Source of the DNA: Terriglobia bacterium
GTDB lineage: Bacteria; Acidobacteriota; Terriglobia; 20CM-2-55-15
Direction of reading: 5' to 3'
Assembly: GCA_965198225.1 (NCBI GenBank)
Contig: CBDAOY010000006.1
Coordinates: forward strand, 997,713-1,061,712
DNA: 64,000 bases
Shown here: positions 4,985 through 11,332 of the stretch, one piece after another
Layout: the number at the start of each line of letters is the position of its first letter
Position numbering within the stretch: the stretch's first letter is position 1
Notes under the pieces: model-generated
What the model saw: only the letters and a program-made list of their open reading frames with translations
Told to the model about the DNA's origin: nothing
Database searches by the model: none
Position numbers and translations under genes: made by a program

Positions 4985-5075
4985 ACAATCTGTTCACCTA
5001 AGGCGGCAGAACTCACTTCTCTTTGGACTCGAGCAGATTACCGTGGCCGCGGTCAGGTGCAGCCGCTTGTCGGGC
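4985..5075 (-). other. Degenerate attC site
   Basis: R'' GCCCGAC, L'' GCTGCACC, L' GGTGAAC; no clear R'. Confidence 0.5.
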
Positions 5076-5804
5076 CGCTGTTGCAGTCAGCAATACCTTC
5101 TCAACCTCGGCGGCGATGCGCTCGTGTACGCTCGTGCTTCCGATCGAGATCGAAGGGACACGAATGATCCGGCTTGCAGAATACCGCAGTGGTCGCAAGA
5201 TTGGCTTTCGACCGTTAAAGAGGAGCTGCCAAAGAGATTCGTAGAGCTTGAGCAGGAACACGAACAATCGCTGCATTTCGGCAACATTCGTGCGCCCCGT
5301 TAATGTTCCCAAGTCCGAGCCCCCCGCTACCTCCTTGTGAGCGAACACCTTATGGCGCAAATCGCGATAATTCCTCTCGTAGATCTTGCGATATTTCTTG
5401 ATGTGTCTCCGTAATCGGCGGAAATCGGACGGCTTCGGCTCGTAGACATCTTTAAGATAGTCGTCGATCCACTCCGCCGCATTCGACGAGAGGCGCTTCT
5501 TGCGCTTCGCCAACTCCGCTTTCGAGAAGATTGCCGGATTCCGTTTGGCGATCACGAACATAGCATCGAGATTGTGCCTCGAGCCTTGATCGAAGACACG
5601 ACCAAGGGCTATCAGAGCCGACGTCTGCAGGCTGCCTGAAACTGTCGTCCAAAACAGCGCGTTCTCATTAAAGAAGTCGAGGACTCCATCGTTTTGTTTG
5701 GCAACTTCGTGAAGAGACAGCCAGGAGTAGAAGAACTGCGCGGCCGTTTCTACCTCGCCGCGGAACACCTCAAGCTCCTTCTCAAATCGCTCGGCGTCGC
5801 TCAT
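5013..5804 (-). CDS. HEPN (AbiU2-like) domain protein, integron cassette
   Basis: Helical protein with RHKVFAH (Rx4-6H) motif; ATG lies just after the reconstituted attC R' GTTG|GGC. Confidence 0.75.
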   Translation of the reverse strand: MSDAERFEKELEVFRGEVETAAQFFYSWLSLHEVAKQNDGVLDFFNENALFWTTVSGSLQTSALIALGRVFDQGSRHNLDAMFVIAKRNPAIFSKAELAKRKKRLSSNAAEWIDDYLKDVYEPKPSDFRRLRRHIKKYRKIYERNYRDLRHKVFAHKEVAGGSDLGTLTGRTNVAEMQRLFVFLLKLYESLWQLLFNGRKPILRPLRYSASRIIRVPSISIGSTSVHERIAAEVEKVLLTATAARQAAAPDRGHGNLLESKEK

Positions 5805-5921
5805 CTTCTTCGTCGGCCATCGCGGTAGAACGGCCAGTTTCCCAAACCGCCCCCGCACAGATCCCGGCGTGCCGTTTTCCAGCACCGGGCTCCTCAGAAG
5901 TACTCGCCTCCGCGTCGGGCC

Positions 5922-6562
5922 TCAGGATAGAGAAACCGCCGTTCGGATCTGGACTCGGGGCCGCACGTGGATGTGTGGCTCGGGCACCTTGAAATGGTTC
6001 AGCAAATCCTTGAAGCCTTGCCGTTTGAAACTGCGGCGTTGACTTCGCCGGTTTAACCACTTCCAGAGAATCGCCATCGCCTCATGGTAGAACTCCTGCA
6101 ATCCCACGCTGTTGCCGCTCACCCCGTAGTATTGGTAGTACCCTCGGAGTTTCGGACTCAGCGCTGGGAACAGCTTGCGGAGGGGCGTGGACCGGTTCTC
6201 CTTGCACCACTGGGTGAAGTTGGCCAGCGAATTCCGGAGCTTCTTCCGAGAGGTCCGGCGCTTCAGGTGGGGCTTGCCGCTGCGATCTTTCCCCCAGTAA
6301 AACTCAAATCCCAGAAAGTCGAACCGGGTTGCACCTGGTTCGACTTTCCGGCTGAAGGGGATCACCCGGCTCTTTGCCTTCGCTAGCCGCAGTCCGAACT
6401 GTTCCAGTCGATGCTCCAGCACCCCGAAAAAGTGTTGCGCTTCGTCCTGATTCTCAAACGCGCACACAAAATCGTCCGCGTATCGAATCAGGCACGCCTG
6501 AAGAACCGGGTGTGTTTCTTCTCCTGTGCCTTCTTTGCTATTGCCAGCAGTGAGGTTGGCAT
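5922..6562 (-). pseudogene. Group II intron reverse transcriptase/maturase with large internal deletion
   Basis: MPTSLLAIAKKAQEKKHTRFF joined out of frame at ~6500 to ACLIRYADDFVCAF...FDFLGF...LRGYYQYYG...WKWLNRRSQ; RT0-4 missing. Confidence 0.9.
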
Positions 6563-6661
6563 TGTGTGTTCCGGCCCTTCATCGCCGGACAATGTTTCCT
6601 GTACCGACTACGTACTTCTGTCCGCCCCTTCCCCCTGTGATCGGCGCGACCGTCTCCGAGT

Positions 6662-7566
6662 GTAGAGTCGAAAGTGGTCGGGCCGATCGGCCCTTCCACC
6701 GTCCGCTCAATCAAACGGCTCGTGCGGTTTTCCCGCAAGCCGCTTTCCTCAGTTGCTCCTCGTTCGGAATTCGCTGTGTGGCGGCAGGTGGCGGCTTCGT
6801 TCGTACCGCGTTTGGGTCTTTCGCTAAGGGAACTATCCAAGTTCACGATATCTCCGCGTTTCCCATCGCTCGCACATTCACGACTGAGTACGGGGACTTC
6901 CCCCTCCAACGGGCCTTTTGGACCCGCCAGCGCCGCTGCTCGAAGCAACGATCCGAGACCTTATGTTTGCCGTCTCGTTCCTGAGTACTATTCCCCGATC
7001 CGATTCCTGACACCGCGTCGGCCGGAATTTCGCTCTCGCTTATATCCGCACCTACCGCGCAGGGCTCTAGGTCGATGTTTGTCTTCTCGGTTGCCCGCCC
7101 TTTCGTCTGCGGGTGCCACATCATCTCGACCTTACCTTCCGCTCGGACGATACCAGGCCTCCCTGGGTCACTCGCGTCTCTTCTCCACCGTGTCGCCCGC
7201 ACACACCTTGGTGCGATGGGGTGGAACCAAATGCGCCTTCGCCCCCATAGTGCGGGCTCGACCATTCCCCATCTTTGGCCGACCGGTTCATCCTCGGGAT
7301 CGCTCCCTTCGATTACGACCCGGTGGTTCTCCTCATGCCCTTCAGACCCCACCTCGCGGTGGGCGCCCTGCCCTCCAAAGTTTCCGTAGGTGGCTCCAGC
7401 TCTGCCTTGTCCGTGTCCGGCTTTCGCCTTCGTGCCCGTTTAGGCATCTGCCATACCTGCCTACACTCCGGCCAGTGAGGCATTACCCCCACTTGTTGGA
7501 TATCGACCCGTGGCCTCGGGCCGAGCGGGACTTTAACCCGCCGGAAACGCGTGCTGCCAGGCACGC
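6662..7566 (-). ncRNA. ORF-less group II intron nested in domain III of the outer intron
   Basis: DV GAAAGCGGCTTGCGGGAAAACCGCACGAGCCGTTTG; 3' end CGACTCTAC; EBS1 ACTATG (7246-7251) complementary to 5' exon CATAGT; removal restores GGAGTCAGATCCGCTCATAGT|ACTCGGAG. Confidence 0.88.
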
Positions 7567-8109
7567 ACTATGAGCGGATCTGACTCCCTGCGACTCCTCG
7601 GCGGCTCTTCTTTCGGTCGAACTCGCCTACCCGCGGCGGTCGTCGGTCCGGCGTCGGGTGCGTTTAGGCTCCGGCCTACCTGGGTCCGGGTTTCCCCCTG
7701 TGTGGGCTCACTAGCCGTATGCCCTGCGCACCGTCGTTTCGGATCGCGTCTCCGCTCGGGAACCCGCAGGGTCTCCCAAGTTCCTGACGCTTCTCTGCAT
7801 GCATGCCACGCTCTAAAGTGGACCCCGGCAGACCCTCGCGGACCTCACCAAAATCGGTCCGTCTGTGTTGGCTTCCGGTACCGTTAACACCGTCGCCCTC
7901 TGCTCTAAGCCACATGACGGGGCTGTATCAAGCTTTGGAGTTCGCGGTCTCTCCTGCGGCCTGCATGCTTCCCTGTGTACGCTTCAACTGACTTGTTCGG
8001 CTTCGTGCCTCCTGAGTCGCAGTTGCAACACTCGGTAGGAGTGGGTGGTTAACCCTTACTCCGCAGGGACTCTCACCCTGCAAGAAGCGCCAAGCTTTGC
8101 TTGGCGCAC

Positions 8110-9826: not shown

Positions 9827-9837
9827 GGCGCTTCCGT

Positions 9838-10638
9838 TCAAGCAGGGCTCGGCTTCCTGCTGATTTCCGCCCTGATCTCAGGGCTGCCTGCAGCTAAATA
9901 GCGGTCGAATACACTGAGGTGGGCAATTTCCGTTTGACAATAATGTCCGTGCCAGCCTGACACCCAGCCCCCTACAACGACCGTGTCGTCGACCTGCTGG
10001 GGCCATCTCTTGAAGTCTCCCCGCACAATATCGTTTCCGGCAGTGCCTCGGTCAACGAAGAAACTCTGCCGTTCAGCGCTTCGGTCCCATGCGACGACGA
10101 AGTGATGCCAACCCGGGTTAAGGCCATCCTTGACGATAAGCTGGCGTCCGTACTCCGCTTCTGAATTCGACGTCTGCACTTCCCATCTATCCCGGGAACT
10201 CGCATGCCGGAGCGCGAATTGATTTCGATACGTGTCCTTCTTGTCACCGCCTCCCGTGTGGTGCGAGAGCAGATAGCGATTGGATGGGGATGATCGCAGG
10301 CCTTCTCCCTTGGGTGGCACGCTAACCCACAGCGAGAGCGTGCACTCCGGCCAGAGTAGGAACCCACCGTCGATCTTCTTGCGATTCTGTCTATCGGCGG
10401 AGATCGAGAGTGGCTCATCCAGTTCACTGAAGACCGCACTGGTCACATCTGTTTGTGGCTCCTTCTTTCTCGGGTCGCGCAACGACACGACTTCAACGGT
10501 TAGCCAAAGCAACCATCCAACAACCACCGAAGTCAGCATGACCAGCGACGCCACATACTGGCCTGTGAACCCACTGACAATCGCGCCCAGAGTACCGATG
10601 GCCCCAAGAAGACCCAGTAGTTTGTCAGTTCTGTTCAT
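9838..10638 (-). CDS. Two-TM anchored LamG/concanavalin-like protein, integron cassette
   Basis: Two N-terminal hydrophobic helices; TLSLWV, GWHHFVVAWD, IAHLSVFDRYL motifs. Confidence 0.7.
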   Translation of the reverse strand: MNRTDKLLGLLGAIGTLGAIVSGFTGQYVASLVMLTSVVVGWLLWLTVEVVSLRDPRKKEPQTDVTSAVFSELDEPLSISADRQNRKKIDGGFLLWPECTLSLWVSVPPKGEGLRSSPSNRYLLSHHTGGGDKKDTYRNQFALRHASSRDRWEVQTSNSEAEYGRQLIVKDGLNPGWHHFVVAWDRSAERQSFFVDRGTAGNDIVRGDFKRWPQQVDDTVVVGGWVSGWHGHYCQTEIAHLSVFDRYLAAGSPEIRAEISRKPSPA

Positions 10639-10655
10639 TAATCGAGTACCCGTCT

Positions 10656-10753
10656 GCCTAACGGCTCAACGTTCAGCCGCAAACGGCGCTGCGATCAGTT
10701 TCAGTTCCGCCCCATCGTGGGCGCCGTTTGAAGGCTGCAACGTTTTGTTAGAC
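10656..10753 (-). other. attC site (98 bp)
   Basis: GTCTAAC-5nt-GTTGCAGC...GCTGAAC-8nt-GTTAGGC with long internal stem. Confidence 0.92.
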
Positions 10754-10755
10754 AT

Positions 10756-11332
10756 CTACTCTGGGAGCCTTCCTTTCGCCTCCCATTCCAATGGCGCATT
10801 TGGGGAGGACCGTGTGAAGCTCGTCACGCGAATCTGAAACCCGTCTGCCGTCTGGTCCACTAGCTCAAAATCGCTGCGGTCAACGACGCTGCGGTCAATA
10901 TTCGGAAATGCAAGTTGCGGCGGTGACGCGAACGGCGTTGGATAATAGATCTGATATTGTCCTGTTCCCCCGATCTGGATGCCTCCCATAAAGGTCGTGA
11001 GCCCTTCCTCCGCCATCCAACTGTCACTCACGGCCGTAATGCCGACTACCGCTAACAGAATCGCGAGAATAGCTATCAGATCCACTCATGCGACGATCTT
11101 TCGTCCTCTATCCTGCTCTTGTGACGCCTGCAGGATCTCCCCTCGAGCTGTAATGATCCGCATGCAAAAAAAGCCGAGCACCAAACCGATCGGATACATC
11201 CATTTCTGATGAGCAAGACCTTCCATAAACAGAATTGGAGCCCCGCTGAGTGCAGCCCCAAGTACTGTCGCCACGATTTTCGGGCTGACCTTGGCAGGAA
11301 TGGAAATCAGATGTGAAAGAACAAATCCAACG
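10756..11332 (-). pseudogene. Membrane protein cassette, 5'-truncated by IS21, in-frame TGA at 11086-11088
   Basis: ORFs 11086-11391 and 10756-11085 are in one frame separated by a single stop; stop abuts attC R''. Confidence 0.6.

Follow-up and report, generated by a model that had tools for sequence, protein, structure and literature searches.

Results

The window, i.e., the whole 64-kb stretch of DNA (64,000 nucleotides) analyzed here, contains a 20.5-kb island at a tRNA-Met gene (24375-24446, minus strand). The island is bounded by a 90-nt direct repeat whose copies are 96% identical; the left copy (3781-3870) is made up of 46 nt of tRNA-downstream sequence and the 3' 44 nt of tRNA-Met, and the right copy (24329-24418) overlaps the tRNA gene. 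On its plus strand, the island encodes an XRE-type HTH regulator (17090-17446; Pfam HTH_3, E 2.8e-10), a D5/DUF5906-type primase-helicase (20322-22007; Pfam DUF5906, D5_N, and Pox_D5; PHROG DNA primase, E 1.7e-81), and a tyrosine integrase (23110-24300; Pfam Phage_integrase, E 8e-22). The latter was rejected as an integron integrase, scoring 35.6 bits against the TIGR02249 cut-off of 265. At the far end of the island, on the minus strand, lie five to six cassettes, each with one or two promoterless genes and, behind them, an attC site of the type that integrons of this bacterial family use. As far as an integrative island goes, the repeats at tRNA-Met, the integrase, and the D5-type primase bear out a first-pass annotation of the stretch, which had placed a cassette array inside a satellite-like element.

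The cargo of the array, all encoded on the minus strand, begins with the two genes of cassette 1. The first (11086-11332) has its 5' region broken by the end of an IS21-family element and runs into that element at 11333, while the second (10756-11085) encodes a 109-residue protein with a hydrophobic N-terminus and no family match in Pfam or PADLOC. Cassette 2 (9838-10638) encodes a 266-residue protein whose N-terminus is hydrophobic and which has a weak LamG-like domain (Laminin_G_3, 20.7 bits, under the cut-off of 27.6); it has three homologues only, and none was found in the 33 other genomes of the family. The product of cassette 3 (8928-9704) is a TIR-domain protein of 258 residues (Pfam TIR_2, E 1e-16, 61.9 bits) with a PG_binding_1 match of 22.1 bits, under the cut-off of 23; its PADLOC matches are limited to the TIR domain, with no partner gene, and a WPRLE stretch in its translation may represent the catalytic site. 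Cassette 4 (8207-8821) encodes a 204-residue protein with no assigned function, whose 16 homologues (39-74% identical) are all unnamed and metagenomic; its structure model has a pLDDT of 85, and a fold search gave no convincing match. Cassette 5 (5013-5804) encodes a 263-residue HEPN/AbiU2-like protein (Pfam HEPN_AbiU2, PF18734, E 8.3e-22, 78 bits against a cut-off of 26.8), in which an RHKVFAH stretch fits the Rx4-6H motif of the family. This protein has no PADLOC match at all, and because none of the 11 loci with AbiU2 homologues that were scanned in the class carries an attC site recognized by our model R1 (see below), the gene is unseen as a cassette elsewhere.

For the remaining cassette ORFs, Pfam returned nothing, and PADLOC called no defense system in the array. 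The HEPN, TIR, and two unknown products listed in the first-pass annotation stand, whereas its PG-binding and LamG calls both lie under their cut-offs, and what it named a defense array comprises two cassettes of about six with defense-type domains. Judged from sequence, a defense role for these two is plausible: the HEPN/AbiU2 protein would most likely be an abortive-infection effector acting as an RNase, and the TIR protein one acting as an NAD-degrading enzyme, again as the most likely assignment.

To identify attC sites, we used a covariance model, R1, trained on 22 attC sites taken from beside true integron integrases in the genomes of four relatives; all window sequence was left out of training, and the model is our own and specific to the family, not that of IntegronFinder. 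In the training sites, 85.7% of cells were paired, compared to 29-38% in slid controls, and their covariation score of 0.488 (0.165 in shuffles) was reached by 0 of 500 shuffles, a test that is partly circular because the sites had been chosen by pattern and by eye. With filters off, R1 matched the window 23 times at E≤10. Four of these matches are clearly set apart, all of them on the minus strand: attC A (10656-10753; 61.1 bits, E 1.1e-14), attC B (9727-9826; 48.2 bits, E 4.3e-11), the 60-nt attC C (8865-8924; 34.1 bits, E 3.9e-7), and attC D (8110-8199 with its last 3 nt at 5816-5818; match 8108-8199, 30.2 bits, E 4.7e-6), these E-values being rough because calibration was short. The same four sites, at the same coordinates, had been proposed in the first-pass annotation, which had staked its reading on such a covariance-model search; all four match, at E 1e-14 to 5e-6. 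The next best match (4980-5075, minus strand; 10.6 bits, E 1.5) is not significant. Sharing sequence with the 3' end of the AbiU2 gene, it retains the 5' two-thirds of an attC, with a consensus-like 5' half and with L'/R' gone, so that the degenerate fifth site described earlier survives as a partial remnant and not as a significant match. In the whole 6.4-Mb genome, R1 gave only 13 matches at E≤1. Of the 34 genomes of the family, 28 contain attC sites of this type. Identity is 82% between attC A and an intI-linked attC of the related genome G005, and 79% between attC D and a site in the related genome G021.

Sites A to D each have L''/L' boxes and an imperfect palindrome, with several mismatches in the stems of B and D. 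Their R'' boxes read GTCTAAC, GCCTAAC, GGCTAAC, and GCCCAAC (consensus RYYYAAC), and their R' boxes GTTAGGC, GTTAGCC, GTTGCGC, and GTTG/GGC (consensus GTTRRRY; the slash marks an intron); in site C, both boxes are off the strict consensus at one position each. The 5' spacer of 2 nt and the 3' spacer of 5 nt match those of intI-linked sites of relatives, and the orientation of the genes with respect to attC is that seen in intI-linked arrays. Two details given previously, an extra base in L'' and a stop codon ahead of each site, held throughout: G occupies the unpaired model position 16 (L'') in the R1 alignments of 4/4 sites, and the stop codon precedes the attC start by 2, 11, 3, and 7 nt for A, B, C, and D. 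The next start codon follows the four sites after 17, 22, 43, and 11 nt, and start-to-start spacing from A through D is about 930, 900, and 725 nt. The R'' boxes had also been described as complementary to the preceding R'. Pairing with the preceding R' extends over 7, 7, 6, and 6 of 7 positions; with the own R' of sites A to D, 6, 6, 4, and 7 positions pair, the last value after removal of the intron; therefore, the point is good for B and C and not for D, which pairs better with its own R'. Measured against shuffled sequence, folding alone reached significance at site A (z -4.5) but at none of the other three sites, whose z values lie between -0.25 and -1.7.

That the palindromes are ordinary terminators or REP-type repeats, ending in AAC/GTT by chance, is a reading that the R1 matches in the window largely refute and that we find hardly credible. 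The genome is indeed full of palindromic repeats, e.g., a 90-nt element in many copies, and the shuffle-like folding of B, C, and D would suit such an origin. However, R1, trained solely beside true integrases, picks these four sites and little else, ignoring the many unrelated matches of a crude AAC...GTT hairpin scan, and the sites have the spacer asymmetry, unpaired G, and R boxes of the model.

The reported split of the fourth attC was confirmed, the gap inside its R' being filled by a decayed group II intron (5819-8109) that lies on the minus strand in the orientation of the cassettes and is matched by Rfam RF02005 (110.9 bits, 7809-8073) and RF00029 (42.3 bits, 5819-5894). The intron has the ends GTGCG...CGAT and is flanked by a 5' exon with the terminal letters ...AGCCGTTG and a 3' exon beginning with GGC. 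Of the intron-encoded protein (5922-6467, minus strand), about 190 C-terminal residues are left, comprising only the YADD part of the reverse transcriptase and the maturase domain (Pfam GIIM, E 1.7e-5); its single solved-structure match is the IIB intron maturase 6me0 (E 5e-7), and Pfam found no reverse transcriptase match in the upstream intron ORFs. Nested in the intron is a 905-nt noncoding repeat (6662-7566) with many genomic copies at 92-98% identity, and contigs of other intron copies skip exactly from 6661 to 7567.

In agreement with the earlier statement that the element has no intI, a profile search of the genome placed its only TIGR02249-level integrase (446.5 bits against the cut-off of 265) at C6:488798-489706, on the same contig as the array and 509 kb away from it; hence the array is not part of a complete integron with intI, attI, and a cassette promoter beside it. 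Within 10 kb of this intI, no attC was found (best match, E 0.19). The encoded IntI ends in ...MIYTHVF, two codons past the catalytic tyrosine, where relatives continue for 15-20 residues more. An IntI in trans, as suggested previously, exists on this contig, although in C-terminally truncated form and with no cassettes beside it.

The upstream end of the array is cut within cassette 1 by the IS21-family element (11333-14031, plus strand; istA 11569-13200, istB 13197-13952; Pfam rve/Mu-transpos_C_2 and IstB_IS21), which has more than 15 copies in the genome. Position 11332, given earlier as the end of the array, is merely the boundary of this element. The copy at the array has a duplicated left end and lacks a target-site duplication, in contrast to the 5-7-bp duplications at at least six other copies. 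Within the duplicated end, a segment at 11451-11475 (minus strand) contains a 21-nt repeat shared with the junction of attC A and cassette 2; with low confidence, it could be a remnant of a further upstream attC (spacer, R' GTTAGGG, and cassette 5' leader). The absent target-site duplication, the truncation of cassette 1 at the element, and this possible R' remnant would fit a history in which a complete island integron (intI, attI, and promoter) was reduced to the present array when an IS21-mediated deletion took the integrase end. We consider this history unlikely, though deserving of some weight: no trace of intI or attI was found beyond the element, and since attC clusters in this genome and family are as a rule dispersed and without an integrase, no lost integrase need be assumed.

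The island has the integrase and primase/replicase module of a phage satellite, as well as a weak AlpA-like HTH (18.4 bits, under its cut-off). Nonetheless, the satellite label of the first-pass annotation was not sustained: no capsid, packaging, or helper-interference gene was recognized among the island ORFs by Pfam and PHROGs, several ORFs being matchless, and no close relative of the island was found for comparison. Its primase occurs in 4 of 400 genomes of the class including this one, at ≤37% identity, and each of two collections holds one 29%-identical locus. Nor did the term "shufflable" find support. Contigs from two other studies, which are blind to rare variants, keep the same cassette order with 0-5 differences, and no sign of ongoing shuffling was seen; in addition, attC D is split, the fifth attC is a remnant, the 5' end is cut by IS21, and the lone IntI is truncated. 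We therefore regard as improbable that the island is a phage satellite with a live, shufflable defense array served in trans by the host IntI, even though its integrase, AlpA-like HTH, and P4-alpha-like primase, the defense-type domains in two cassettes, the intI on the same contig, and the intact attC sites A to C all speak in its favor.

Discussion

CALINs are defined by at least two attC sites, separated by no more than about 4 kb, with no intI nearby. With co-oriented attC sites about 725-930 nt apart and the nearest intI 509 kb off, the integrase-less array described here is a member of this already known kind of element. In all probability it is a decaying CALIN, whose cassettes were loaded by IntI in trans and include two likely abortive-infection effectors. 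An integron integrase acting in trans would have inserted the cassettes one by one, presumably recombining the folded bottom strands of the attC sites, and the match of a cassette's R'' to the upstream R' would be the trace of its insertion. The array is now in decay, its upstream end taken off by IS21, attC D interrupted by the intron, and the fifth attC left without its 3' part. The cargo genes would work one by one.

A more ambitious reading, which we hold to be a long shot, is a helper-dependent integrative island, equipped with integrase and primase but devoid of capsid genes, that carries the array as an exchangeable module, with IntI loading anti-phage cassettes in trans and the intron riding along. 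If true, IntI would load at a secondary site, the cassettes would move between strains with the island, and the accompanying group II intron lineage would target the sense strand of attC.

As a probable CALIN, the array illustrates how integron cassettes of a little-studied family occur as scattered small integrase-less clusters, one of them inside a mobile island, and suggests how cassette genes, likely anti-phage ones among them, could move between strains without a mobile integron. By-products of the analysis are a family-specific attC model, rare cassette proteins as candidates for defense screens, and an intron lineage that enters attC in an unusual sense orientation. The array leaves the current picture of integrons unchanged.

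The term CALIN was reportedly defined in a 2016 paper. IntegronFinder 2.0 is listed as PMC9024848. Like known CALINs, the array consists of small genes, each with an attC site behind it; the sites share one orientation at distances under 4 kb, intI is absent from the vicinity but present elsewhere in the genome, and most of the cargo has no known function. It differs from them in its location, an island integrated at a tRNA gene and equipped with an integrase and a primase, and in having been identified by the family-specific R1 instead of the IntegronFinder model. The island shares with P4-like and PICI satellites its tRNA integration, tyrosine integrase, adjacent small HTH gene, D5/P4-alpha-type primase-helicase, and accessory region, whereas no gene for capsid remodeling, packaging, or helper sensing was recognizable in it, and a helper is not known.

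As far as the consulted parts of the literature on IIC-attC introns go, canonical members occupy the bottom strand in antisense orientation to the cassettes, inserted at TTGT/T in R'' (PMC3001079, PMC7923331). The intron here departs from this placement, being a top-strand insertion at CCGTTR/G in R' with the orientation of the cassettes; it resembles the S.ma.I2 type, as portrayed there, in being a group II intron in attC right after the hairpin and in the existence of enzyme-less derivatives. Sense-oriented exceptions described in the sections consulted are a IIB intron just downstream of attC and one atypical top-strand IIC intron (PMC7923331).

Defense genes, including HEPN-only proteins, occur in integron cassettes and CALINs, according to the portion consulted of a study of sedentary chromosomal integrons (bioRxiv 10.1101/2024.07.02.601686). 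Compared to the arrays presented in that portion, ours is short (five to six cassettes), belongs to another phylum, and has no adjacent integrase, and the defense role of two of its cassettes is predicted from sequence. It resembles the defense cassettes described there, among which CALIN cassettes are counted, in being built of small single-gene cassettes with HEPN-only or Abi-like products.

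Recognition of attC sites with an independent covariance model

[quoted passage not shown] In the sequence, open reading frames (ORFs) on the minus strand are followed, one per ORF, by imperfect palindromes with AAC/GTT ends. As search methods, RYYYAAC...GTTRRRY patterns and a hairpin scan of our own making proved over-strict or unspecific at about 60% GC and were abandoned. Of the four candidate sites, all on the minus strand, the folding anticipated by the first-pass annotation was seen against shuffled sequences for attC A (10656-10753; z -4.5), and not for B (9727-9826), C (8865-8924), and D (8110-8199, with its last 3 nt at 5816-5818), with z of -0.25 to -1.7. 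Because the patterns and the scan could not separate sites from background and only A folds clearly, we sought an independent standard. A short-word BLAST search detected no close copies of the sites in the genome.

Classical cassette arrays adjoin the integrases of four related genomes (G032, G015, G019, and G005), where small co-oriented ORFs are each followed by a site of 63-102 nt with the coding-strand layout R''(GCCTAAC)-2 nt-stem-unpaired G-stem ... stem-5 nt-R'(GTTAGGC). Twenty-two of these integrase-linked sites were aligned (alignment A1), and a covariance model, R1, was trained on A1 alone. The structure drawn for A1 has 85.7% paired cells and both-side changes in 16 pairs, with 29-38% paired cells in slid controls; shuffles scored 0.165 for covariation, none of 500 reaching the 0.488 of A1, in a test that is partly circular, since one author both selected the sites and derived the structure from them. 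In the 64-kb window, R1 matched A, B, C, and D on the gene strand with 61.1, 48.2, 34.1, and 30.2 bits, respectively (E of 1e-14 to 5e-6); the next match was at 4980-5075 (E of 1.5), and 18 further matches up to E of 10 were noise. All four sites that had been proposed by eye were thus recovered independently, and the extra unpaired base noted in their L'' is a G in the integrase-linked layout on which R1 rests. In addition, an integrase-linked attC of G005 shares 82% identity with attC A, and a site in related genome G021 shares 79% with attC D.

Over the whole source genome (G000; 6.4 Mb in 9 contigs, with the window at C6:997713-1061712), R1 found at least 13 sites at E of ≤1, with 150 of about 4,200 first-look candidates scored. 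Dozens of copies of a 90-nt perfect-armed palindromic repeat, with ends GCGGAACGGCG...CGCCGTTCCGC, are also present in this genome (for example, C6:270746-270835 and C7:267930-268019, given as contig:positions); R1 gave no match to this repeat.

Cassette anatomy and cargo

The attC sites follow stop codons, as had been noticed, with stop-to-attC gaps of 2, 11, 3, and 7 nt and attC-to-next-start gaps of 17, 22, 43, and 11 nt for A, B, C, and D, respectively. In the same order, the number of the 7 R'' positions that pair is 7, 7, 6, and 6 with the preceding R' and 6, 6, 4, and 7 with the site's own R'. The proposed complementarity of R'' to the preceding R' therefore holds at B and C (7 and 6 of 7, against 6 and 4 for their own R') and fails at D (6 against 7); read from sequence, the pairing at B and C is the footprint expected of former cassette circles closed at G|TT, which D does not fit. 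A fifth attC lacks L' and R' but still shows L'', two stems, the unpaired G, and an R''-like box.

Numbered along the minus strand from the upstream end, cassette 1 holds two genes (11086-11332 and 10756-11085), whose products match no family and are both hydrophobic at the N-terminus. The product of cassette 2, of 266 amino acids (aa), is likewise hydrophobic at its N-terminus and weakly resembles LamG (match below the cut-off); it has 3 homologues and occurs in 1 of 34 family genomes, the source genome itself, being absent from the 33 others. Cassette 3 encodes a 258-aa TIR protein (TIR_2, E of 1e-16; PG_binding_1 just under the cut-off), and cassette 5 encodes a 263-aa HEPN/AbiU2 protein (E of 8e-22). 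The 204-aa product of cassette 4 has 16 unnamed metagenomic homologues of equal length and a confident predicted structure (pLDDT of 85), for which no convincing structural relative was found (Atlas, nothing usable; Foldseek, best E of 0.075; VIA-align, best Z of 5.0). The cassette and island proteins have no paralogues in the genome except distant integrases, and a sigma-70 scan gave 1 site against 2.2 expected.

The first-pass annotation had proposed a defence array; only two of about six cassettes carry defence-type domains (TIR_2 and HEPN/AbiU2), and PADLOC called no system, matching the TIR domain alone (best, the SAVED-TIR model, E of 1.3e-7) and no other cassette protein. A PADLOC Cas7_IIIh match to 15990-16769 (E of 4e-4) was taken as chance. 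RHKVFAH in the HEPN protein and WPRLE in the TIR protein are predicted active sites, and it is plausible that these two genes act in abortive infection. Of 400 class genomes, 13 have AbiU2 homologues, the source genome and the unpublished G388 among them; 11 of the 12 other loci, all but that of G388, were scanned with R1 and gave 0 matches at E of ≤0.1. Integron cassettes and CALINs have been reported to carry defence genes, including HEPN-only proteins (bioRxiv 10.1101/2024.07.02.601686).

The tRNA-Met island

Direct repeats of 90 nt (3781-3870 and 24329-24418; 96% identical), which include the 3' 44 nt of tRNA-Met (24375-24446), bound an island of 20.5 kb. The island encodes a tyrosine integrase, an XRE regulator, a D5/DUF5906 primase-helicase (PHROG primase, E of 1.7e-81), and a small protein with a weak HTH_17 match below the cut-off. 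Several ORFs match nothing, and genes for capsids, packaging, or a relaxase were not recognised among the island ORFs; the island, which had been suggested to be a satellite, is at most a candidate for one. Integrons and attC sites have been reported in phage genomes (PMC9892861), and, in their titles and the beginnings of their abstracts, the listed publications joining integron, phage satellite, and attC describe no array inside a satellite.

A DNA search of 40 related genomes for relatives of the island returned nothing beyond pieces of insertion sequences (IS), introns, repeats, tRNAs, and attC sites. Searching by the primase likewise gave no close relative, with one 29%-identical locus each in genome_contigs and metagenome_contigs and matches of ≤37% identity in 4 of 400 class genomes, the source genome included. 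Three genomes of the genus show synteny over the right flank of the island, and in two genomes of the genus the same tRNA-Met holds other, smaller islands of about 9 kb (L052, G002:C1:2311500-2324500) and about 5 kb (L053, G003:C1:1917000-1926000), each ending in a short remnant of an integrase C-terminus and having no R1 match. This tRNA-Met is a hotspot of integration.

Just outside the island lie genes for a BrnT toxin and an MqsA/XRE-like antitoxin (2872-3464) and a third, partial copy of the att repeat (26 nt; 3521-3546), the latter suggesting that this tRNA had received an earlier integration.

Integron integrase and other attC clusters

An integrase acting in trans, or since lost, had been invoked for the array. 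One true integron integrase is encoded in the source genome, on the contig that carries the array (C6:488798-489706 by its TIGR02249 match; C6:488804-489769 for loci L001 and L042), with 446.5 bits to TIGR02249 (cut-off, 265). This lone IntI still has its catalytic tyrosine and the insertion specific to integron integrases; its TIGR02249 match reads through a TGA, and it ends two residues past the catalytic-tyrosine motif (...MIYTHV), while four relatives run 15-20 residues further. An intI in trans exists; its product lacks the C-terminal tail, and R1 found no attC in the 10 kb around the gene. Among 40 related genomes, the source genome counted, 10 have an integrase above the TIGR02249 cut-off.

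At least five further small integrase-less clusters, of 2-4 sites each, are present in the source genome (C3:156692-160576, C7:47837-51523, C6:295964-297539, C7:280046-280247, and C8:36625-39051). With filters off, R1 found 12 sites at E of <0.01 in seven stretches of this genome, the two stretches with intron copies only having none. Sites of this attC type are present in 28 of 34 family genomes, a count that includes the source genome and three genomes that supplied training sites for R1; genomes of the genus without intI at E of ≤1e-40 are among the 28. Because the type is widespread, including in genomes with no intI at that threshold, integrase-less clusters are the norm in this family.

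Public sequencing runs

Two runs of other studies yield contigs that match 3841-5845 and 8068-11360 at 0 to 5 differences; these contigs break at the repeats and support the assembly. No public contig joins across a cassette, a result from contigs only that is silent on excision. Run X9 has no cover over 8263-11070, and RNA run X12, which covers only intron, repeat, and IS pieces, all multi-copy, is silent on expression.

Decay of the array

The cassette array is now decaying, and no variant cassette order was found among the public contigs, which cannot show rare forms; the array had been described as shufflable, a description that these results do not bear out. At its upstream end lies an IS21 copy (11333-14031) without the target duplication, of 5-7 bp, found at at least six other IS21 copies. 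The first 120-130 nt of this copy are duplicated (11333-11600), the inner copy differing by six or seven small deletions and by no substitution. Between the two end copies, about 25 nt resemble spacer, R' (GTTAGGG), and the 5' leader of cassette 2, and are possibly what is left of one more attC. At two other copies (C6:899375-901961 and C7:914278-916836) the target duplications are swapped, the left flank of one matching the right flank of the other, which points to recombination between the copies or an assembly mis-join.

Within R' of attC D (GTTG|GGC), a group II intron is inserted on the gene strand (8109 to 5819), with ends GTGCG...CGAT and Rfam matches to RF02005 (110.9 bits) and RF00029 (42.3 bits). 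Only the C-terminal part of the intron-encoded protein is left, from the YADD motif onward with the maturase domain. Nested in the intron is a 905-nt non-coding repeat (6662-7566), purine-rich on the minus strand, with more than 15 genome copies at 92-98% identity and a weak group-II-D1D4-3 match in Rfam (24.6 bits, below the gathering score).

Four copies of this intron lineage were found in the source genome (5819-8109 of the window, C6:296063-296868, C5:569679-570483, and C8:78632-79436), three of them enzyme-less forms of about 805 nt. All four are sense to the cassettes and inserted at CCGTTR|G in R' of the attC top strand; an R1-supported attC forms the 5' exon in two, and the C5 and C8 copies have identical flanks with no R1 match there. 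A sense intron in R' was also seen in another genus (L050, G010:C43, about 3100-3630). Canonical IIC-attC introns are reported on the bottom strand, antisense, at TTGT/T, with sense-oriented exceptions described (PMC3001079 and PMC7923331). Compared to the canonical introns, the lineage in the source genome lies on the opposite strand and at a different position.
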